Source: a virus
Taxonomy: Duplodnaviria > Heunggongvirae > Uroviricota > Caudoviricetes
DNA length: 32,602 nucleotides
Reading direction: 5' to 3' (one strand)
IMG/VR virus record: IMGVR_UViG_2698536533_000006
Shown here: one piece after another, positions 1,596-21,331 of the stretch
Numbering within the stretch: position 1 is the first letter of the stretch
Layout: every line of letters begins with the position of its first letter
Made by a program: the position numbers and the translations under genes
The notes under the pieces: generated by a model
What the model was told of the DNA's origin: nothing
Seen by the model: only the letters and a program-made list of their open reading frames with translations
Database searches by the model: none

Positions 1596-3683
1596 ATGTT
1601 TGCTTCAGTTAAAGAACTGGTTGGATTACCGGGGATGCCGGGAACGGAGCAAGGCGTTCGCTATTCAATCAGGAAGTATGCAACCAGCGAAACCAGCAGA
1701 CGCCGCAAGAAAGGCGCTAAAGGTTTTGAATACAGCATTGACTGTTTACCTGAAGTGACACAGCAGGCATTACGCGAACGTTATGCCCTGCAACTGATGA
1801 CGCAAAAAGCCGATGAATCACCGGCTCCGGTGGTGACAAAGGCCAGACGCTCGTCTGCCGTGGTTGATGCGGTGGAGGCATATCGCGGATCACCACAACT
1901 GATGGTCGAACGCCTCAATGCCCTGACTGAAAACCAGCGCCAGGTGGCAGACGCACGCATTGCGATCGTCAGTGAGGTGCTGAAATTCACGCAACAACCC
2001 GGTTTCAGCTGCGCTAAAGCTATCCGGTTCCTCGTTAACAGCCTGGCACGATCACAACTGGACGAGCGCATTGTGGCAATGGTTGAGACGGCGAACGCCA
2101 AAAAGGGAAACAGCCGCGCGTTGAGTGAAATCACGCTGAAACGCTGGATTGCGGCCTTTAACAAGGCACAGAACGCCGCTGAACGCCTGCTTTTACTGGC
2201 ACCGGGTAAACGCCAGGAAATAAAAGCCGAAGATATTAACTGGCTGCCCGAATTTCTGGCGCAGTATCGCCAGTCAAACGGCCGACCAATGACCGAGGCT
2301 TACGAGGATTTTGTTGCTGAATGGCAGCACCGGCACGCTGATGAGCCTTATATGCTCGATATCATGCCCTCTTATGACACCATTCGCCGCGCAATGAAGA
2401 AACTGCCGGAAGTGGTGAAACAAAAAGGCCGGGTAACTGGCAGTGAATACCGTCAGCTTGAGGGATTCACGCGCCGCGACTGGTCCAGAATGCCGGTGAA
2501 TTATGTCTGGATTGGTGACGGTCACGGCATGAAGCTGAAATGCGCGCACCCGGTTCACGGGCGGCCATTCGCACCGGAAGTGACCTTTGTTATCGACGGT
2601 GGCACGCGCTTTGTGGTGGGCTGGAGCCTTGACCTGGCTGAAAATGTTTTCGCCGTAGCCGGTGCCATACAGCACGGTATTCGCCATCATGGCAAACCGT
2701 TTCTGTATTACTCGGATAATGGCTCCGGGGAAACCGCCGACGTCCTGGATAAGGAGATTGTGGGGATACTGCCACGACTGGGGATTAATCACCCGACAGG
2801 GATTGCCGGTAATCCGCAGGGACGGGGCATTATCGAACGGCTTAACCGCACATTACCGATGCGCATAGCCCGTAAATACCGCACCTATTTCGGGAAAGGA
2901 GCAGATCGCGAGACGTTACGTAAAACCAACCGCGATTTACGCTCGGCATTCAGTGCCCTGCAACAGGGCAAACGGCTGAACGCCCGGCAGCAGTCAGCGA
3001 TGCGTGATTTACCGTCCTGGTCTGAACTGATTGATGCCATTCGTGACGGTGTTGAGTGGTACAACAACCGGCCGCACGATGAATTACCCATGAAGCCGAA
3101 CGGTAAACATTACAGCCCGGCGGAGTTCAGAAAAAAACGCCTGGCGGAAGAGGACACGGAAATTGAATGGCTGTCCGATGTTGAACTGCGGGATATGTTC
3201 CGGCCGATGGTGGAGCGCCCTGTAAGACGCTGTGAAATACGCTGGCTGAATAATATTTACTACGCGCCCGAGCTGCGTGACGAGCATGGCCGTAAGGTAC
3301 TTATCAGCTATGACATTCATGATGCCGAACGAATTACCGTGCGCCGCCCGGATGGCAGCGTGATTTGCGAGGCGGTATGGGACGGCAATAAACGCGAAGC
3401 CTTCCCTGTCAGCGCGGAATACTACAAACAGCAGCAGCGCCTTAAAGGCATGCGTAAACGCGCAGAGGAAAAAATCCGTGATGCCGAGGATGAGGTTGTC
3501 AACGTGCTGGAGCACAAGCCGCAGGAGCCCTGGCTGGAAAACATATACCGCCCTGTGGGTAATACGGTGACCGTTCAGCAACCGGTCGCTGACGATGAAC
3601 CTGATGAAGAATACGAGCGTAATTTCCAGCGGGGATTGCAACTGCTCGAAGCGAAATTAAAAGAAAGTGATCCGCTGGCCTGA
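1596..3683 (+). CDS. MuA-like DDE transposase
   Basis: 695 aa; N-terminus (SVKELVGLPGMPGTEQGVRYSIRKYA...KGAKGFEYSIDCLPEVTQQAL) resembles the MuA DNA-binding domain; size and position after ner match Mu A. Confidence 0.9.
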   Translation: MFASVKELVGLPGMPGTEQGVRYSIRKYATSETSRRRKKGAKGFEYSIDCLPEVTQQALRERYALQLMTQKADESPAPVVTKARRSSAVVDAVEAYRGSPQLMVERLNALTENQRQVADARIAIVSEVLKFTQQPGFSCAKAIRFLVNSLARSQLDERIVAMVETANAKKGNSRALSEITLKRWIAAFNKAQNAAERLLLLAPGKRQEIKAEDINWLPEFLAQYRQSNGRPMTEAYEDFVAEWQHRHADEPYMLDIMPSYDTIRRAMKKLPEVVKQKGRVTGSEYRQLEGFTRRDWSRMPVNYVWIGDGHGMKLKCAHPVHGRPFAPEVTFVIDGGTRFVVGWSLDLAENVFAVAGAIQHGIRHHGKPFLYYSDNGSGETADVLDKEIVGILPRLGINHPTGIAGNPQGRGIIERLNRTLPMRIARKYRTYFGKGADRETLRKTNRDLRSAFSALQQGKRLNARQQSAMRDLPSWSELIDAIRDGVEWYNNRPHDELPMKPNGKHYSPAEFRKKRLAEEDTEIEWLSDVELRDMFRPMVERPVRRCEIRWLNNIYYAPELRDEHGRKVLISYDIHDAERITVRRPDGSVICEAVWDGNKREAFPVSAEYYKQQQRLKGMRKRAEEKIRDAEDEVVNVLEHKPQEPWLENIYRPVGNTVTVQQPVADDEPDEEYERNFQRGLQLLEAKLKESDPLA

Positions 3684-3988
3684 AATAAAAAAATAACCCG
3701 AGGGGTGACTCAGGTTATTTGAGGTTTCAGTCTCNNNNNNNNNNNNNNNNNNNNNNNNNNNNNNNNNNNNNNNNNNNNNNNNNNNNNNNNNNNNNNNNNN
3801 NNNNNNNNNNNNNNNNNNNNNNNNNNNNNNNNNNNNNNNNNNNNNNNNNNNNNNNNNNNNNNNNNNNNNNNNNNNNNNNNNNNNNNNNNNNNNNNNNNNN
3901 NNNNNNNNNNNNNNNNNNNNNNNNNNNNNNNNNNNNNNNNNNNNNNNNNNNNNNNNNNNNNNNNNNNNNNNNNNNNNNNNNNNNNNNN

Positions 3989-6914: not shown

Positions 6915-7238
6915 NNNNNNNNNNNNNNNNNNNNNNNNNNNNNNNNNNNNNNNNNNNNNNNNNNNNNNNNNNNNNNNNNNNNNNNNNNNNNNNNNNNNNN
7001 NNNNNNNNNNNNNNNNNNNNNNNNNNNNNNNNNNNNNNNNNNNNNNNNNNNNNNNNNNNNNNNNNNNNNNNNNNNNNNNNNNNNNNNNNNNNNNNNNNNN
7101 NNNNNNNNNNNNNNNNNNNNNNNNNNNNNNNNNNNNNNNNNNNNNNNNNNNNNNNNNNNNNNNNNNNNNNNNNNNNNNNNNNNNNNNNNNNNNNNNNNNN
7201 NNNNNNNNNCTGCCGGGATATCTGCGGAGGTGGCGTAA

Positions 7239-11605: not shown

Positions 11606-11833
11606 ATGGATGATTCAGATTGTGCTCAGGCAGTCATGGAGCGTGCAACAGAACGCGCCCTTTGTGACCGGCTGACACGTAAGCGCCGGGTGGCGGAGAC
11701 ACCGGGCAGGCGTGTATGCGCGGACTGCGGGGGTGACATTCCGGCTGCCCGTCTGGTTGCCGTGCCGGATGCCATCCGTTGTGTGAACTGCCAGAACATC
11801 ATGGAGGCCGGTCATGTGGGTCAGCATCGTTAA
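11606..11833 (+). CDS. DksA/TraR-family C4 zinc-finger protein
   Basis: 75 aa; CADCG...(19 aa)...CVNCQ four-cysteine finger; RBS AAGGAAAAAGG upstream. Confidence 0.65.
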   Translation: MDDSDCAQAVMERATERALCDRLTRKRRVAETPGRRVCADCGGDIPAARLVAVPDAIRCVNCQNIMEAGHVGQHR

Positions 11834-12125
11834 AGATTATGTCGTGCCGATCCTGTCGGCAACGGCCACAGCCGGGGGGATCTTCATGGCGCTGATGCGC
11901 AAAACCTTTGTCCCCCGCGAGGCCTTTGAAAAACTCTCCGACCGGGTTGAGCGGGTGGAGAGCCGGATTTCCGGCCTGCCCACGCAGCAGGAGGTGAACA
12001 GACTCAATATCGAAATCACCACCCTGCGCGGTGAGCTTAAGGCCACCAATGCCACCCTGAAATCCGTCTCCCATCAGAACGAACTGCTGCTGGAGCAGGC
12101 TGTAAGGAAAAAACACAATGAGTGA
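11814..12125 (+). CDS. Membrane-anchored coiled-coil protein (position of Mu gp25)
   Basis: 103 aa; N-terminal hydrophobic segment (VVPILSATATAGGIFMALM) followed by a heptad-like region; ATG overlaps the upstream gene. Confidence 0.5.
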   Translation: MWVSIVKDYVVPILSATATAGGIFMALMRKTFVPREAFEKLSDRVERVESRISGLPTQQEVNRLNIEITTLRGELKATNATLKSVSHQNELLLEQAVRKKHNE

Positions 12126-12408
12126 TTTCATTACTGAAGATCAGCGTCTTGTCATTCTGCGGTCGCTGGCGGATTACAACGGCGAACTGGGCGAATCCGT
12201 GCTTCAGGACTGCCTGGATGATTACGGTCACCGCGTGTCCCGCGACACCGTTCATACCCACATTGCCTGGCTTGCCGAGCAGGGACTGGTGCGTAAGCGC
12301 ACGCTTGTTAACGGTTATTTCATCGCTGAACTGACCGGCCGGGGTCAGGATGTGGCGGAAGGCCGCGCCACCGTTCCGGGTGTGAAGAAACCACGCGCAA
12401 GGGGGTAA
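12118..12408 (+). CDS. Hypothetical protein (96 aa), position of Mu gp26
   Basis: ATG overlaps the upstream stop (ATGA); no recognisable motif. Confidence 0.45.
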   Translation: MSDFITEDQRLVILRSLADYNGELGESVLQDCLDDYGHRVSRDTVHTHIAWLAEQGLVRKRTLVNGYFIAELTGRGQDVAEGRATVPGVKKPRARG

Positions 12409-12410
12409 CG

Positions 12411-12992
12411 ATGGATAAGCCAGCGCGTGGCCGTGTACGCAAGGTGGATTTGCTCCCCGACAGCATCCGTAAGCCGCTGCTGGAAATGCTGCGTGAAAAA
12501 CGTCTGACGCAGGTCCAGATCCGCGAGGAAATCAACCGTCTGATCCGTGAAGCAGGTCTGCCGGAAGAGCAGCAGCTCTCACCGGCGGCCATCAGCCGGG
12601 AAGCCTCCCGTAATGAGCTGATTGCCCGTAATCTGCGTGATTTACGCGAGCAGACAAAAGCCATGATGGCCGAACTGGGGGATAAGCCGACCGGTGAAAC
12701 CACGGCACTGATTCTGGAGATGTCCCGTGCCCTGATGTACCGCCGTCTGCGTGCCGCCACCGAATCCCTGAACAGCGACAGCGATGTGGATATGCGCCTT
12801 ATTAAGGACATCCTCCTGTCGGCACAGCGTGCAGAAAGTGCCGCCGAGCGCAGCATTAAGCGTGAAAAAGAAATCCGGGCCGCATTTGCTGAAGAGATGG
12901 CGAATGCGGTCACCGATGAGTTGCGCGGCGTGGATGGCATGAGCGAGCAGATCGAATTCCGTATCAGGCAGATGCTGCTGGGTAAGGCGTAG
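12411..12992 (+). CDS. Mu gp27-like protein, putative terminase small subunit
   Basis: 193 aa, immediately upstream of the large terminase gene; basic N-terminus. Assignment is by synteny and general resemblance. Confidence 0.55.
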   Translation: MDKPARGRVRKVDLLPDSIRKPLLEMLREKRLTQVQIREEINRLIREAGLPEEQQLSPAAISREASRNELIARNLRDLREQTKAMMAELGDKPTGETTALILEMSRALMYRRLRAATESLNSDSDVDMRLIKDILLSAQRAESAAERSIKREKEIRAAFAEEMANAVTDELRGVDGMSEQIEFRIRQMLLGKA

Positions 12993-13002
12993 GAGGTGAA
13001 TC

Positions 13003-13251
13003 ATGGCAACAGATAACCGCTCACTGATGAGCAGTGCCCATCAGAAAGCATTCAGTCTTGCAACACAGTTACCTCCTGAAACCATAAAGGTATGTCGTGA
13101 GTTGACTGAACTCAGCATTGCCGGGGAAATATCCCTGGAACAACTGCATTCGCTGCTGGCAGAGGCTGCCACTGATGAGTTGAGCGGCGTGGACGTGATG
13201 ACTGAAGAGCTTGAGTCCCGAATCAAAAGCATTCTGACAGGTAAAGCATGA
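13003..13251 (+). CDS. Small protein (82 aa) sharing its C-terminal motif with the upstream gp27-like protein
   Basis: C-terminus DELSGVDVMTEELESRIKSILTGKA versus gp27-like DELRGVDGMSEQIEFRIRQMLLGKA; stop overlaps the terminase start. Confidence 0.5.
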   Translation: MATDNRSLMSSAHQKAFSLATQLPPETIKVCRELTELSIAGEISLEQLHSLLAEAATDELSGVDVMTEELESRIKSILTGKA

Positions 13252-14915
13252 TGAACAAAGCCAGAGAAACGTCGCCTTCACTGATGCAAATGACGCCTCC
13301 CCGCAAAATTGATCTGTCAGGTGAAAAAGCCCTGCTGGGCGTGGATGTGCCGGACAGCCTTGATTTGCCCGGTGATATGCCGGTGTTTCTGGATTATCAG
13401 GCCCGCTGGTTTGCAGATGAAAGTCAGGTCTGCATCGCGGAGAAATCCCGCCGCACCGGTCTTACCTGGGCGGAAGCCGGGCGTAACGTCATTACTGCTG
13501 CAAAACCGAAGCGTCGTGGTGGCCGCAATGTGTTTTATGTGGGATCAAAGCAGGAGATGGCGCTGGAATATATTTCTGCCTGCGCGCTGTTCTCCCGTGC
13601 CTTTAACCAGCTGGCAGATGCTGATGTGTATGAGCAGACATTCTGGGATCGGGATAAAAAAGAAGAAATTTTGACCTACATGATCCGCTTTCCGAACAGT
13701 GGATTCAAAATTCAGGCATTGTCTTCCCGTCCGTCAAACCTGCGCGGCCTTCAGGGGGATGTGGTGATTGATGAAGCCGCGTTCCACGAGTCACTGGATG
13801 AGCTTCTCAAGGCGGCAATGGCGCTCACTATGTGGGGCGCGCGCGTGCGTATTATCTCCACGCATAACGGCGTCGATAATCTGTTTAATCAGTACATTCA
13901 GGAAGCCCGCGAGGGGCGCAAGGATTACAGCGTCCACCGCATAACCCTGGATGATGCCATTGCGGACGGGCTGTACCGTCGTATCTGTTACGTCACCGAT
14001 CAGGAATGGTCACCGGAAAGCGAGCAGAAATGGCGTGATGATCTCTACAAAAACGCCCCGACCCGTGAGGATGCCGACGAGGAATACGGCTGTATCCCGA
14101 AAAAATCCGGCGGTGCCTATATCCCCCACGCGCTTATTGAAATGGCGATGATCCGCGACATCCCGATTCTGACGTTTGAAGCCCCGGACAACTTCATCAG
14201 CCGTGCCGCATGGCTGCGTGAATCGGAAGTTTTAACCTGGTGTGAAGAACATTTAAAACCGCTTTTAGAGAAATTAAATCCCCGTTCCCGCTTCAGCTTC
14301 GGGGAAGACTTTGCCCGCACCGGTGACCTGTCCTGCTTTGTGCTGCTGGAAATCACCGAATCCCTGGCAAAGCGCGAGGTGTTTCGCGTGGAGCTGCGCA
14401 ACCTGCCGTATGCCCAGCAGGAACAGGTGATGATGTACATCCTGACCCGCGTTCCGGCGCTGGTCGGTGCGGCGTTCGACGCCACCGGTAACGGCGGCTA
14501 TCTGGCAGAGGCCGCACTGCTGGCCTTTGGCCCGGACATCATCGACTGCGTGATGTTGTCGCCGAAGTGGTACGGCGAGTGGATGCCAAAACTGAAAGCC
14601 GAGTTTGAAGATCAGAATATCCTCGTCGCCCGCCATCAGACCACGCTTGATGATTTGCGCCATGTGAAGGTAGTGAATGGTATCCCGCAAATCGACAAGG
14701 GGCGCACGAAGGACCAGAACGCAACGGCTGCGAACGCCCGCCGCCATGGTGATTTTGCCGTGGCGCTCTGTATGGCAAACCGGGCGTCATACATGGAGGG
14801 CTTCATCCTGGATGAATCAGCCTGTCAGGCGCTACAGGAGCGGTCGCGGGCAATGGAGGGCGGTTATCGTGATGACGATGAGGCATATCATGAATTTGAT
14901 CGGGGGGGCTGGTAG
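13248..14915 (+). CDS. Terminase large subunit (Mu gp28-like)
   Basis: 555 aa; position and size match Mu gp28; general resemblance to terminase ATPase/nuclease proteins. Confidence 0.8.
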   Translation: MMNKARETSPSLMQMTPPRKIDLSGEKALLGVDVPDSLDLPGDMPVFLDYQARWFADESQVCIAEKSRRTGLTWAEAGRNVITAAKPKRRGGRNVFYVGSKQEMALEYISACALFSRAFNQLADADVYEQTFWDRDKKEEILTYMIRFPNSGFKIQALSSRPSNLRGLQGDVVIDEAAFHESLDELLKAAMALTMWGARVRIISTHNGVDNLFNQYIQEAREGRKDYSVHRITLDDAIADGLYRRICYVTDQEWSPESEQKWRDDLYKNAPTREDADEEYGCIPKKSGGAYIPHALIEMAMIRDIPILTFEAPDNFISRAAWLRESEVLTWCEEHLKPLLEKLNPRSRFSFGEDFARTGDLSCFVLLEITESLAKREVFRVELRNLPYAQQEQVMMYILTRVPALVGAAFDATGNGGYLAEAALLAFGPDIIDCVMLSPKWYGEWMPKLKAEFEDQNILVARHQTTLDDLRHVKVVNGIPQIDKGRTKDQNATAANARRHGDFAVALCMANRASYMEGFILDESACQALQERSRAMEGGYRDDDEAYHEFDRGGW

Positions 14916-16504
14916 TGGGACGCATCATTGATACTGACGGAAAACCTTTCTCCTTTGACCCGGAGATGCAGAGTGCCGCGCTGGATATTCCGCAGATTGC
15001 CAGCCGTTATATTGAACATCCGGCTTCGGGTATCACCCCGAACCGGGCGGCGCAGTGCCTTCGCGGGGCTGAACGTGGCGATCTGATTGCCCAGTCCGAT
15101 CTGGCCGCTGATATTGAAGAAAAGGACACCCACCTTTTTGCGGAGCTGGGCAAGCGACGTCTTGCCATTCAGGGGGTGCCATGGAGTATTGAGCCGCCAC
15201 CGAACGCCAGCGCGAATGAGAAAAAGGACGCGGAAATGCTCGACGAATATCTGCATTCCGCAGACTGGTTTGATGCCATGCTGTTTGACGCCACGGATGC
15301 CATCCTGAAGGGCTATTCCTGCATGGAAATTGAGCACGGGATGCTCGGTAAAATGCACATCATCCGCGCCATCCGCTGGCGTGACAGCGGGCATTTCTGC
15401 CTTAACCCGGATGATTTGAGCGAACTGCGGCTGCGTGACGGCAGCCATGCCGGGGTGGCGTTTCAGCCCTTTGGCTGGATAGTGCATCAGTCGCGTTCAC
15501 GCACCGGCTACGGTGGTGCGACGGGGCTTGTCAGAACGCTTATCTGGCCGTTCATTTTCAAAAACTATTCCGTGCGCGATCTGGCGGAATTTCTGGAGGT
15601 GTACGGCCTGCCAATGAAGGTCGGGAAATACCCGTCCGGGGCAACACCGGAGCAGAAAAGTGCCCTGATGCGGGCGGTGATGGATATCGGGCGACGTACA
15701 GGCGGGATCATCCCGGCCGGGATGTCGCTGGAGTTTCAGGCGGCAGCGAACGGTCAGGCCGATCCGTTTGAAACCATGATTTCGTGGGGTGAGCGTTCCA
15801 TCTCCAAAGCAATACTCGGCGGCACGCTGACCACAGAAGCCGGAGACAAAGGCGCGCGCTCGCTGGGTGAGGTGCATAACGAGGTGCGCCGGGAAATCAG
15901 GGATTCTGATTTACGCCAGCTGGCTGCAACCCTGAACCGCGATCTGGTGTATCCGCTGTATGCCCTGAACACCGCCCACGCCATTGATATCCGTCGCCTG
16001 CCGCGTATCTGTTTCCAGACCAAAGAACCGGGGGATATCACCAAAATAGCCAGTGCGGTGATGCAACTCAGTGCGGGGATGGATATTCCTGATCCCTGGG
16101 TACGGGATCAGACCGGTATTCCACAGCCCACGCCCGGTGAAGCCATATTCCGTGTCCGTCAGAGCAGTAATGAACCGGCCATGCCTGACAGGGAAACGCT
16201 ACCGGAAAAACAGGAAAAGACAGAACAGACGGCGCTTTCAGCCCGACTGCCGGAAGCGAAAAACACGCCGCGTGATGAACTGGACGACATGGGGGACGCG
16301 GTGCCTGCCCGCCGCTTACAGGAGGCCATCGATCCGGTGCTGGAGCCGGTCATTGATGTCATCAGAACGCGGGGGCTGGCGGAGGCACTGGCAGACCTGC
16401 CTGCCCTTTACCGTGAAATGGATGATTCCCGCCTGATGACGCTGCTCAGTGATGCCATGTTTGCTGCGGAAATGAAGGGGATGCTGGATGGCTCAGGGGA
16501 TTGA
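14915..16504 (+). CDS. Portal protein (Mu gp29-like)
   Basis: 529 aa, GTG start overlapping the terminase stop (TAGTG); position after the terminase; acidic C-terminal region. Confidence 0.8.
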   Translation: MGRIIDTDGKPFSFDPEMQSAALDIPQIASRYIEHPASGITPNRAAQCLRGAERGDLIAQSDLAADIEEKDTHLFAELGKRRLAIQGVPWSIEPPPNASANEKKDAEMLDEYLHSADWFDAMLFDATDAILKGYSCMEIEHGMLGKMHIIRAIRWRDSGHFCLNPDDLSELRLRDGSHAGVAFQPFGWIVHQSRSRTGYGGATGLVRTLIWPFIFKNYSVRDLAEFLEVYGLPMKVGKYPSGATPEQKSALMRAVMDIGRRTGGIIPAGMSLEFQAAANGQADPFETMISWGERSISKAILGGTLTTEAGDKGARSLGEVHNEVRREIRDSDLRQLAATLNRDLVYPLYALNTAHAIDIRRLPRICFQTKEPGDITKIASAVMQLSAGMDIPDPWVRDQTGIPQPTPGEAIFRVRQSSNEPAMPDRETLPEKQEKTEQTALSARLPEAKNTPRDELDDMGDAVPARRLQEAIDPVLEPVIDVIRTRGLAEALADLPALYREMDDSRLMTLLSDAMFAAEMKGMLDGSGD

Positions 16505-17832
16505 TTTAGGTTATGCCGCCACGCTTCCCTCAAAAGAGACGGTGGCATACTTCCGCGCCAAAGGGGCGCATATCAGCTGGAACTGGTTCGAAACAGACGC
16601 GGATGTTCATGCCCGCTCATTCACGGCAGCAAAAACGGCACGGCTGGATGTGGTAACCACATTACAGGCCGAAGTGCAGCGGGCCATTGATGAGGGGATT
16701 TCACAGAAAGAATTTATCCGCACACTGACGCCACGCCTGCAAAAGCTGGGATGGTGGGGAAAGCAGATTGTGGTGGACAGCGACGGTAACGCGGAAGAAG
16801 TGCAGCAGGGCAGTCCCCGTCGTCTGGCGCTGATTTACAACGTGAACACCCGTGTGGCTTACAATGCCGGGCGTTACACGCAGATGATGAACAACACGGA
16901 CACGCATCCGTTCTGGCAGTATGTGGCGGTCATGGACAGCCGTACCCGCCNNNNNNNNNNNNNNNNNNNNNNNNNNNNNNNNNNNNNNNNNNNNNNNNNN
17001 NNNNNNNNNNNNNNNNNNNNNNNNNNNNNNNNNNNNNNNNNNNNNNNNNNNNNNNNNNNNNNNNNNNNNNNNNNNNNNNNNNNNNNNNNNNNNNNNNNNN
17101 NNNNNNNNNNNNNNNNNNNNNNNNNNNNNNNNNNNNNNNNNNNNNNNNNNNNNNNNNNNNNNNNNNNNNNNNNNNNNNNNNNNNNNNNNNNNNNNNNNNN
17201 NNNNNGGCGCCAGAACCATGACACCGGATGTGGGCTGGTCATATAACCCCGGCTCGGCAGCGTTCGGCACAGACCAGGCGCTGATCCGCAAACTGATCGA
17301 GGTGAAAAGCCCGGCGTTACGGGAAATGGTGGTTCAGGAGATGAACAACAGCCCGGAGCGGCAGCTGGCGTTCCGCATCTGGGCAAAAAACATCATGCAG
17401 ACCCGGCGAGGTGGTAACGATATCCGCACGCTGGGCTTTATGACTGAAAGCATTGCGCAGGCAGTGGAAAGCCGGACGGGAACGCCACCGGCCCGCCTGC
17501 TGGCGATGAGCGGTAAAAATGTGCTCCATGCGGACAGTGTGAAACATCAGAATGACGGCATCGCTCTGACGCCGGAGGACTTCGGGCGCTTACCGGCAAT
17601 GCTGGCAAGGCCAAAAGCGGTACTGTGGGACAAACGGCACAACAATCTGATGTATATCGTGGAAAATCAGGATGGCAGTGTGCAGATTGCCGTTAATGCA
17701 CCGTACAGTCTGAAACGTCAGCCCGACAAACTGGATGTGATTGTGAATGCTTACCGGGTTATCAATATGGATAAGCTGAAATCGGATATCCGGGGCGGAA
17801 TGCTTGAGGTGCTGGAAGGACAAATTGATTAA
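16488..17832 (+). CDS. Head morphogenesis protein (Mu F / gp30-like), interrupted by N run 16951-17205
   Basis: Open frames on both sides of the gap with combined size near Mu gp30. Frame continuity across the gap cannot be verified. Confidence 0.6.
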
Positions 17833-21058: not shown

Positions 21059-21331
21059 NNNNNNNNNNNNNNNNNNNNNNNNNNNNNNNNNNNNNNNNNN
21101 NNNNNNNNNNNNNNNNNNNNNNNNNNNNNNNNNNNNNNNNNNNNNNNNNNNNNNNNNNNNNNNNNNNNNNNNNNNNNNNNNNNNNNNNNNNNNNNNNNNN
21201 NNNNNNNNNNNNNNNNNNNNNNNNNNNNNNNNNNNNNNNNNNNNNNNNNNNNNNNNNNNNNNNNNNNNNNNNNNNNNNNNNNNNNNNNNNNNNNNNNNNN
21301 NNNNNNNNNNNNNNNNNNNNNNNNNNNNNNN

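Follow-up and report, generated by a model that had tools for sequence, protein, structure and literature searches.

How does the end of a packaging protein come to be repeated at the end of the next gene? The question is raised by a Mu-like prophage of Escherichia coli, contained in IMG/VR record IMGVR_UViG_2698536533_000006 (the window, the whole stretch of 32,602 nucleotides; positions 12100-13400 are 99.9% identical to the chromosome of strain 102651). Here gp27, which encodes a Mu-type putative small terminase subunit (TerS), is followed by an open reading frame (ORF) of 82 codons, hereafter orf82, and then by the gene of the large terminase subunit (TerL). A first-pass annotation, made from the sequence alone, had proposed that the C-terminus of gp27 recurs in the 82-residue protein, which it thought could be either a paralogous adaptor or competitor or a retained partial duplication. 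Our analysis shows that orf82 joins two parts of different ancestry: its first ~55 residues are the small helical domain of a family of 65-69-aa ORFs found behind gp27 in E. coli and Salmonella Mu-like prophages, and its last ~27 residues are a gp27 tail from a different Mu-like phage lineage. We lean towards the view, which we hold with reasonable though not high confidence, that orf82 is a chimera made by recombination and not a duplicate of its neighbour, a by-product of mosaicism in which the tail is a scar.

The gp27 tail at the end of orf82

The recurrence of the gp27 C-terminus proved real. BLASTP aligned gp27 residues 163-193 with orf82 residues 52-82 without gaps (18/31 identical, 24/31 positive, E 3e-10), and the local-alignment score of 90 was reached by 0/2000 shuffles (mean 19.8, sd 4.3). 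A hidden Markov model (HMM) built from 12 gp27 tails found three orf82 variants at E ~1e-12, compared with E ≥0.5 for 2100 shuffled decoys. Conversely, the gp27 tail matched PHROG 30922, the orf82 family, at positions 51-82 (E 6e-8), and hhalign paired orf82 48-82 with gp27 159-193 only (E 3.8e-5). The similarity is thus significant by BLASTP, shuffle test, tail HMM, PHROG and hhalign alike. It extends to the DNA, as the first-pass annotation had also claimed: aligned without gaps and anchored on their stop codons, the two tails agree at 51/75 (68%) or 62/93 (67%) nucleotides. The truly shared segment spans ~27 residues (orf82 56-82), and the 4-5 further residues in the BLAST alignment sit at the fusion point. 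A third partial copy of the repeat core, GGCGTGGA(T/C)G, lies at 13333-13347 within TerL, where it encodes ..LLGVDVP..; this echo of the GVDV of the orf82 tail is probably due to chance.

The two tails form direct repeats exactly 259 nt apart in adjacent genes, as might be left if the 3′ end of the adjacent gp27 had recently been duplicated in tandem and the upstream part had then diverged fast. The divergence between the copies argues against such an event. Over 31 codons, they agree at 24/31 first, 24/31 second and only 14/31 third positions, and the Nei-Gojobori comparison gave pS 0.69, near saturation, with pN 0.23. This pattern indicates that the gp27 tail (allele A) and the orf82 tail (allele B) parted long ago and that both apparently coded for protein during most of that time. 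Moreover, the closer match to the orf82 tail is not the adjacent gp27 tail (67% of nucleotides, 60% of amino acids) but the L002-type gp27 tail, carried by other E. coli Mu-like prophages (78% and 73%). Upstream of the tail, orf82 showed no similarity to gp27 in DNA, protein or profile comparisons or in any frame, and the N-terminal domain (N-domain) did not resemble gp27 1-162 (shuffle p 0.63). The copies of a tandem duplication should be mutually closest and similar across the whole unit; gp27 and orf82 are neither. On these sequence comparisons, a recent tandem duplication is effectively refuted, and we give it almost no credence. Of the retained partial duplication proposed at first, the homology of the tails stands; what does not stand is descent from the adjacent gene, since tail B is an old allele (pS 0.69) and sits on an unrelated N-domain that is found elsewhere without a tail.

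A small gene family at a mosaic junction

Relatives of the N-domain that lack a tail occupy the same slot in other prophages (relative loci are given L-numbers and related proteins P-numbers): 65-aa ORFs in L029 and L086, a 69-aa ORF in L084 and the 67-aa protein P0012. BLASTP aligned orf82 4-46 with the ORF of L084 at 38% identity (E 3e-8) and with that of L029 at 35% identity (E 4e-7), and the N-domain is 54% identical to P0012. A family profile search returned 40 protein clusters, ~30 of them tail-less Salmonella forms of 65-69 aa; the remainder were two forms of 65-67 aa (P0012 and P0162) and the tailed forms of 82 aa, all of the latter from E. coli. Post-gp27 ORFs start 7-10 nt past the gp27 stop, on the same strand and upstream of TerL, and orf82 shares this spacing (12992 to 13003) with L084, L086, L090 and L093. 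The tail-less forms extend little beyond the third helix, and their C-termini (..VKKV, ..QQEEP, ..RRGKT) are unrelated. In none of the shorter forms did the gp27-tail HMM find a tail remnant; L025, L028, L029 and P0012 scored no better than shuffles, and a six-frame scan of 84 Mu-like loci detected a second tail copy only in orf82 loci. Because tail-less relatives carry no remnant and the second tail is confined to orf82 loci, the comparison indicates that the tail is a lineage-specific addition to an existing small gene.

We surveyed the gp27/TerL junction in 79 IMG/VR loci encoding gp27 relatives and in contigs with Salmonella gp27 homologues. Salmonella prophages whose gp27 is 72-74% identical carry a 65-aa ORF (MQQKYDWYALLSGAHEQAF...VKKV), and prophages with 86% gp27 identity carry a 69-aa ORF (MHKEYDWEALSSSAHEKAFSVA...QQEEP) followed by a reverse-strand 72-aa ORF. 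Other cargo includes a reverse-strand 166-aa ORF in Salmonella (L088 3148-3648, minus strand) and an 87-aa ORF (L028 3590-3853), and distant Mu-like phages hold unrelated ORFs of 63-68 aa (PHROG 1761) or membrane mini-proteins of 50-55 aa; further cargo-bearing loci are L084 (3093-3647), L085, L065, L066, L070, L075, L077 and L083. Judged from this gene content, the gp27/TerL junction of Mu-like prophages is a cargo hotspot. Neither orf82 nor the other junction cargo ORFs matched any entry of Pfam, NCBIfam or PADLOC.

Two further candidates at these junctions were rejected. The 87-aa ORF of L028 (..AERLRGAELYLFVRYFVGKTS) looks plausible by eye as a decayed tail, but the tail HMM rated it no better than shuffles. 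Derivation of the orf82 N-domain from a duplicated TerL 5′ end was suggested by a tblastn match (13/44, TerL -5 to 39, E 0.11; shuffle p 0.004) and was not accepted, because the small ORF of L029 compared with its own TerL gave a null result (p 0.60). Separately, the 65-aa ORF of L029 (3590-3784) matched PHROG 220, 'minor head protein and DNA pilot', at positions 917-974 of 1338 (E 2.5e-5), which may reflect a fused member in that PHROG.

The distribution of orf82 is narrow. The region from gp26 through gp27 to the TerL 5′ end was present at ≥90% identity in 231/5426 complete E. coli genomes, and the 184 nt specific to orf82 (12993-13176) occurred in 25/231, at 29 places. In single-copy relatives, exactly 259 nt are missing; gp27 ends in ..DELRGVDGMSEQLESRIKGILLGKA, and its stop overlaps the TerL start. 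The gap between gp27 and gp28 of Mu is only 7 nt. D108, SfMu and Yersinia Mu-like phages matched the gp26-gp27 part only (query 34-897) and had no match to orf82-specific DNA. The first-pass annotation had made its reading depend on the presence of the 82-codon ORF in relatives; its absence from ~206/231 E. coli prophages and from Mu, D108 and SfMu counts against that reading. One locus, L009, has the slot deleted down to 9 codons. Among 5.8 billion proteins searched, 11 relatives were found, all from E. coli or metagenomes and at least 79% identical over the full length; an exhaustive HMMER search of 1.84 billion representative proteins gave 4 matches, of which only P0012 was an addition, and a scan of one genome per GTDB species found no orf82. 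No disruption of the ORF was seen at any of the 29 E. coli places or in 8 IMG/VR contigs. The pattern of presence and absence is best accounted for by a dispensable accessory gene. The literature searched contained no mention of the protein, its accessions or PHROG 30922.

The start codon of orf82 (13003-13005) is polymorphic: the window type uses ATG, the FORC_069 type (L004 2511-2513) GTG, behind the same AGGAGG. The FORC_069 type is the commonest orf82 haplotype, and its S71F substitution makes the tail more like that of the adjacent gp27 (..EFRI..), a likeness that could be micro gene conversion or coincidence.

Comparison with single-copy relatives places orf82 inside a mosaic patch. Identity per 30 nt was 27-30 in the flanks and 14-26 at ~12890-13300, so that the patch is 47-87% identical to these relatives and the flanks 90-100%; its GC content is 0.47-0.51, compared with 0.56-0.61 in gp27. 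The orf82 tail together with the first ~50 nt of TerL matched at ≥90% only in the 25 genomes with orf82 (60-80% in the other 206), and tail B and the corresponding TerL 5′ allele (B) thus occur only with orf82. Identity of the window to all relatives returns at ~13300, at the TerL sequence encoding PPRKIDL.

Locus L090 shows the left part of this patch in another arrangement. Its gp27 carries exactly the unusual tail A of the window (..SEQIEFRIRQMLLGKA), followed by the same AGGAGG and the same ORF start (ATGGCAACAGATAACCG). Past that start, the ORF of L090 runs on as the tail-less 67-aa P0012; 120 nt of spacer separate it from a TerL whose N-terminus differs (MSKRTGEEK...). As far as the ORF start, the window and L090 have identical sequence, and homology persists through orf82 residue 55 (..LLAEA vs ..LVAHA). 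Beyond this residue, the window has ATDELSGVDVMTEELESRIKSILTGKA, followed by the ATGA overlap and by yet another TerL N-terminal allele, the third (MMNKARETSPSLMQMTPP). L009 derives from the L090 layout by a deletion that leaves a remnant of nine codons, MATDWFSYE, before a stop. Judging from these alignments, the L090 layout is the probable pre-fusion state.

The first ~17-25 residues of TerL are hypervariable in general, with at least five unrelated alleles (compared at window 13248-13300, L002 3894-3950, L009 ~3615-3700, L029, L086 and L090), and TerL is otherwise 95-99% identical. All of these alleles converge at (P)PRKIDL, which marks a recombination breakpoint. Because the TerS-binding site of phage P22 lies in the first 23 TerL residues (PMC9611059), the variability may, by analogy, bear on the specificity of TerS-TerL pairing.

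We propose that an L090-like ancestor, with a tail A gp27, a ribosome-binding site, a tail-less ORF, a spacer and TerL, recombined with a phage whose gp27 lies directly against TerL. Of the two crossovers, the left would have been illegitimate and inside the small ORF; the right would have been a homologous exchange in the conserved stretch of TerL that encodes PPRKIDL. A single block would have brought in the last ~27 gp27 codons and the TerL 5′ end of the donor, whose gp27 would end in ..DELSGVDVMTEELESRIKSILTGKA (tail B). The reading frame of the tail would have survived because ribosomes can run on to the ATGA overlap, which normally couples TerL to its upstream gene and feeds TerL translation, only if the join is in frame. 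The tail would now be drifting under relaxed or altered constraint, and the orf82 protein would be a dispensable late-operon accessory co-expressed with TerL. Binding of TerL by the tail, if there is any, would be a residual property and not the reason why the gene exists.

The order of events could also be reversed. If the tailed form were ancestral, the family would have its origin in a partial copy of the gp27 3′ end, and the Salmonella forms of 65-69 aa and P0012 would have lost their tails later. All the small ORFs do hold the same slot, several of them end in basic or Gly-Lys residues just before the TerL start (..RRGKT, ..VGKTS, ..VKKV), like the ..GKA of the tail, and MAFFT sets the ..LEDKVKKV of the Salmonella 65-aa form opposite ..ATDELSGV of orf82. 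Against such losses stand the failure of the gp27-tail HMM to see a remnant in L025, L028, L029 and P0012 and the lack of homology between the N-domain and gp27. Furthermore, three tail-less subfamilies with differing C-termini contrast with a single tailed branch, known from E. coli only, and the nearest relative over the first 34 residues, P0012 of L090, has no tail and has its C-terminal half in common with the Salmonella 69-aa branch. The relationships suggest that tailed forms are nested within tail-less ones, and we regard a tailed ancestor as quite improbable.

Constraint on the tail and possible docking on TerL

Next, we considered the selection acting on orf82. Among orf82 haplotypes, the ratio of nonsynonymous to synonymous polymorphism (pN/pS) was 0.18-0.59 for orf82 (N-domain 0.12-0.60, tail 0.26-0.54), compared with 0.01-0.06 for gp27 and 0.05-0.11 for TerL of the same loci. 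The difference from the neighbouring genes was significant in three comparisons with the divergent M18 allele (L003; Fisher p 2e-7 to 6e-4) and not significant in two closer pairs (p 0.26-0.42). The enterobacterial gp27 tail follows the motif DELRGxDGMSExLExRIxxxLLGKA, and the orf82 tail, which the tail HMM recognises at E ~1e-12, departs from it at four invariant positions: at -21, -17, -15 and -3 from the end it has S, V, T and T, where 36 distinct gp27 tails (from 116 homologues) have R/H, G, S and L/M without exception. Its mean identity to gp27 tails, 0.63, is the lowest of the tails examined (others 0.72-0.81).

Several observations weigh against the recombinational scar that we favour. 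A donor gp27 with tail B was found in none of the complete E. coli genomes, and a full-length gp27 encoding GVDVMTEELE was found in neither IMG/VR nor the GTDB representatives; the direction and steps of recombination are therefore read from the arrangements that survive. It is from the ATGA overlap alone that we infer translational coupling of orf82 and TerL. RNA folding revealed no structure sequestering the TerL start (z +1.24, not significant), and TerL, whose ATG has a weak AGG 6 nt before it, might initiate independently. Finally, pN/pS of orf82 is below 1, if only marginally distinct from neutral expectation (binomial p 0.006-0.16), and the tail has kept L, I, I and L on the hydrophobic side of its terminal helix. 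These signs, together with the ORF being intact in every place and contig counted above, make some selection on the orf82 protein likely, possibly including the tail.

Such selection would be expected if orf82 worked as a functional mimic, with its TerS-type tail docking on TerL and the protein acting as an adaptor or as a competitor or regulator of gp27-TerL assembly. As an adaptor, it would bring the N-domain to the packaging motor; in a further variant, it would block the TerS of co-resident Mu-like prophages. The precedent comes from lambda and P22, in which the C-terminal region of TerS binds TerL (PMC9611059). The AlphaFold2 model of orf82 (moderate confidence, pLDDT 69.7) contains helices at residues 3-22, 25-39 and 45-60, a low-confidence loop at 60-67 and a helix at 68-79; a Foldseek search of it against PDB gave only chance matches (E >1). 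That of gp27 is of low confidence (pLDDT 59.9) and was therefore used for its secondary-structure layout only: a helix at 128-171, a loop at 172-178 and a helix at 179-189. As far as these low-confidence models can be compared, the helix-loop-helix of the orf82 tail mirrors the predicted gp27 layout, and the hydrophobic residues L-12, I-8, I-5 and L-4 are retained.

A docking function for orf82 is also consistent with the conservation of the gp27 tail, which is among the best-conserved parts of a family that across lineages is only 30-40% identical overall. Ribosomes have a strong binding site on the gene and translate it just ahead of TerL; its tail is inherited as one block with a TerL N-terminal allele, and its pN/pS lies below 1. 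Against a docking function, ~89% of near-identical prophages and every classical Mu-like phage lack orf82, and L009 has it deleted, so that packaging does not require it. The proteins most closely related to its N-domain function without a tail, and no other Mu-like lineage has evolved a second one. The substitutions at the four gp27-invariant positions (R/H to S, G to V, S to T, L/M to T) indicate that the tail is not under gp27-type constraint. Nothing comparable on the function of the Mu gp27 tail or on its binding to TerL was found in the literature searched. An adaptor or competitor role, which the first-pass annotation had suggested, is therefore less likely than the scar, and we treat it as a possibility of the second rank.

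A bolder version of docking, which we think unlikely, would have orf82 serve as a phage-encoded, detached TerS tail that tunes terminase assembly. It might bind TerL as this is made, directly after orf82 itself, and keep it in an inactive complex until pac-bound gp27 takes its place. Alternatively, it might blunt the TerS of co-resident prophages, whose tails are 73% like its own, compared with 60% for its own gp27. The four unusual substitutions would then be adaptive changes of affinity or specificity and not decay.

The locus and its known counterparts

The coordinates of the locus are collected in Table 1. The identification of gp27 as a Mu-type putative small terminase in the first-pass annotation was borne out by Pfam PF11985, Phage_Mu_Gp27 (116 bits, cut-off 28; full length, profile positions 1-173), and by PHROG 426, 'terminase small subunit' (E 1.8e-54); gp27 had no match among PDB sequences. 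Its tail consists of the end of the long helix, an RGVDGMS loop and the terminal helix, a motif conserved across gp27 proteins. The AGGAGG of orf82, separated from the ATG by 6 nt, is the same in L090 and L009. Over residues 2-82, orf82 matched positions 2-82 of the 82 in PHROG 30922 (function unknown; E 6.9e-52). The ATGA overlap that joins orf82 to TerL also joins gp27 to TerL in single-copy relatives, and the first ~17 residues of TerL are the distinct allele B inherited with the orf82 tail. A scan of the block for promoters and terminators found no promoter-like site and no convincing terminator inside it, and neither for orf82 itself.

Table 1 Features of the gp26-gp27-TerL block and its surroundings in the window
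Feature	Position	Strand	Basis or remark
DUF2730 protein	11814-12125	+	
gp26-like winged-helix protein, first gene of the gp26-gp27-TerL block	12118..12408	+	PHROG 436, E 2e-40
gp27, Mu-type putative small terminase (TerS), 193 aa	12411..12992	+	PF11985, PHROG 426
Mosaic patch containing the 259-nt insert	12890..13300		Sliding identity vs L002, alignments, GC
gp27 tail, allele A, residues 163-193	12897..12989	+	BLASTP-aligned stretch
Shine-Dalgarno sequence AGGAGG of orf82	12991..12996	+	Read from sequence; overlaps gp27 TAG stop
orf82, probable chimeric accessory ORF, 82 aa	13003..13251	+	PHROG 30922; RefSeq WP_000179787.1 'hypothetical protein'
orf82 N-domain, residues 1-55, three predicted helices	13003..13167	+	Post-gp27 small ORF family
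orf82 tail, residues 56-82, gp27-tail allele B: ATDELSGVDVMTEELESRIKSILTGKA	13168..13248	+	Homology, HMM
ATGA overlap, orf82 TGA (13249-13251) and TerL ATG (13248-13250)	13248..13251	+	Read from sequence
TerL, Mu gp28 homologue, 555 aa	13248..14915	+	PHROG 2 'terminase large subunit', E 5e-43
DUF935/Mu-type portal	14915-16504	+	

The gp26-like protein had weak Pfam matches to winged helix-turn-helix (HTH) domains and bears the RefSeq label 'VpaChn25_0724 family phage protein'. A 291-aa protein, P0014, contains a complete gp27 (96% identity over the full length of gp27) and has the length of gp26 (96) plus gp27 (193) plus 2; read-through or fusion of gp26 and gp27 may have produced it, unless gene calling is at fault. 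A premature stop breaks gp27 in two IMG/VR contigs (L014 ~2086, L034 ~3323), which suggests that some prophages are decaying or that these are assembly errors. RefSeq labels gp28 of Mu (L089; NC_000929.1 12899-14554, Mup28) a 'putative portal protein', a name that looks outdated, since the window homologue matches PHROG 2 and the DUF935/Portal_Mu gene comes next. The window contains five masked runs of N (128-295 nt, at 1330-1457, 3735-3988, 6915-7209, 16951-17205 and 21059-21331), one of which falls within an ORF downstream of the portal gene (16488-17246).

We then compared orf82 with known systems. With the Mu gp27 family, it shares a homologous stretch, its last ~27 residues, in which a helix ends, a Gly/Asp loop follows and a short amphipathic helix closes with GKA, and a place directly upstream of TerL with a stop overlapping the TerL start in both arrangements. 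Unlike gp27, it lacks the HTH-like N-terminal region and the long helical core (~85% of the profile), gives no PF11985 match at E ≤0.1 and belongs to no Pfam family at all, and is optional where gp27 is universal in the group. Because it carries only the tail, orf82 should not, on its sequence, be counted in the gp27/TerS family; it belongs to PHROG 30922 and to an unnamed post-gp27 family. The tail-less post-gp27 ORFs, which form part of PHROG 30922, have the homologous N-domain, the same slot and the same late-operon context, and differ in that only the E. coli 82-aa branch is fused to a gp27 tail.

The gp27 and orf82 tails can also be set beside other small terminases. In lambda gpNu1 and P22 gp3, a flexible C-terminal segment likewise follows the TerS oligomerisation core and binds the TerL N-terminus (PMC9611059), and by this precedent the gp27 tail, and hence that of orf82, would be expected to touch TerL. 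These proteins have no sequence relationship to gp27 or orf82, nor does their segment occur separately on a second protein. For a competitor, the nearest precedent, compared by description, is Rpp of the phage-inducible chromosomal islands (PICI), a small satellite-encoded protein with its own fold that binds TerS and not TerL and redirects packaging to the satellite (PMC6739421). Like Rpp as described, orf82 would be a small protein acting on the terminase by protein contact; unlike Rpp, it is phage-encoded, lies inside the terminase operon and has no known activity. PADLOC, Pfam and NCBIfam placed it in no terminase-interference family (Rpp/Ppi type) and in no anti-phage defence family.

A further comparison is with mosaic junctions and morons, accessory genes inserted between conserved late genes. 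Mosaicism of temperate phages, with illegitimate recombination at gene boundaries and moron-type cargo slots, is a familiar process. The orf82 locus resembles such junctions in its presence/absence polymorphism among near-identical phages, its lower GC and sharp breakpoints, the several unrelated cargo genes at one junction and the chimeric ORF at the joint. It differs in having the joint inside a coding sequence, where the peptide of a neighbouring essential gene is kept in frame, and in lacking a promoter or terminator of its own. To our knowledge, in-frame joints that preserve a neighbour's functional peptide have rarely been documented this clearly. The process behind orf82 is thus already known as phage mosaicism; what is unusual is that it left a recognisable peptide in frame and that all intermediate states survive.

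For annotation, the locus calls for caution, because tail similarity alone should not make orf82 a terminase subunit. For the study of packaging, orf82 is a natural construct that displays a small-terminase tail on an unrelated scaffold beside TerL. Should the tail bind TerL, it would offer a simple means to map the TerS-TerL interface of transposable phages, which is still uncharacterised; should it fail to bind, the four substitutions would mark residues that matter in gp27. Four states of the junction survive in public data, namely the empty site (L002 type and Mu), the tail-less ORF (L090 and Salmonella), the chimera (the window) and the deletion remnant (L009), and the main value of orf82 lies in the clean, fully traceable case that they provide of phage mosaicism making new genes.

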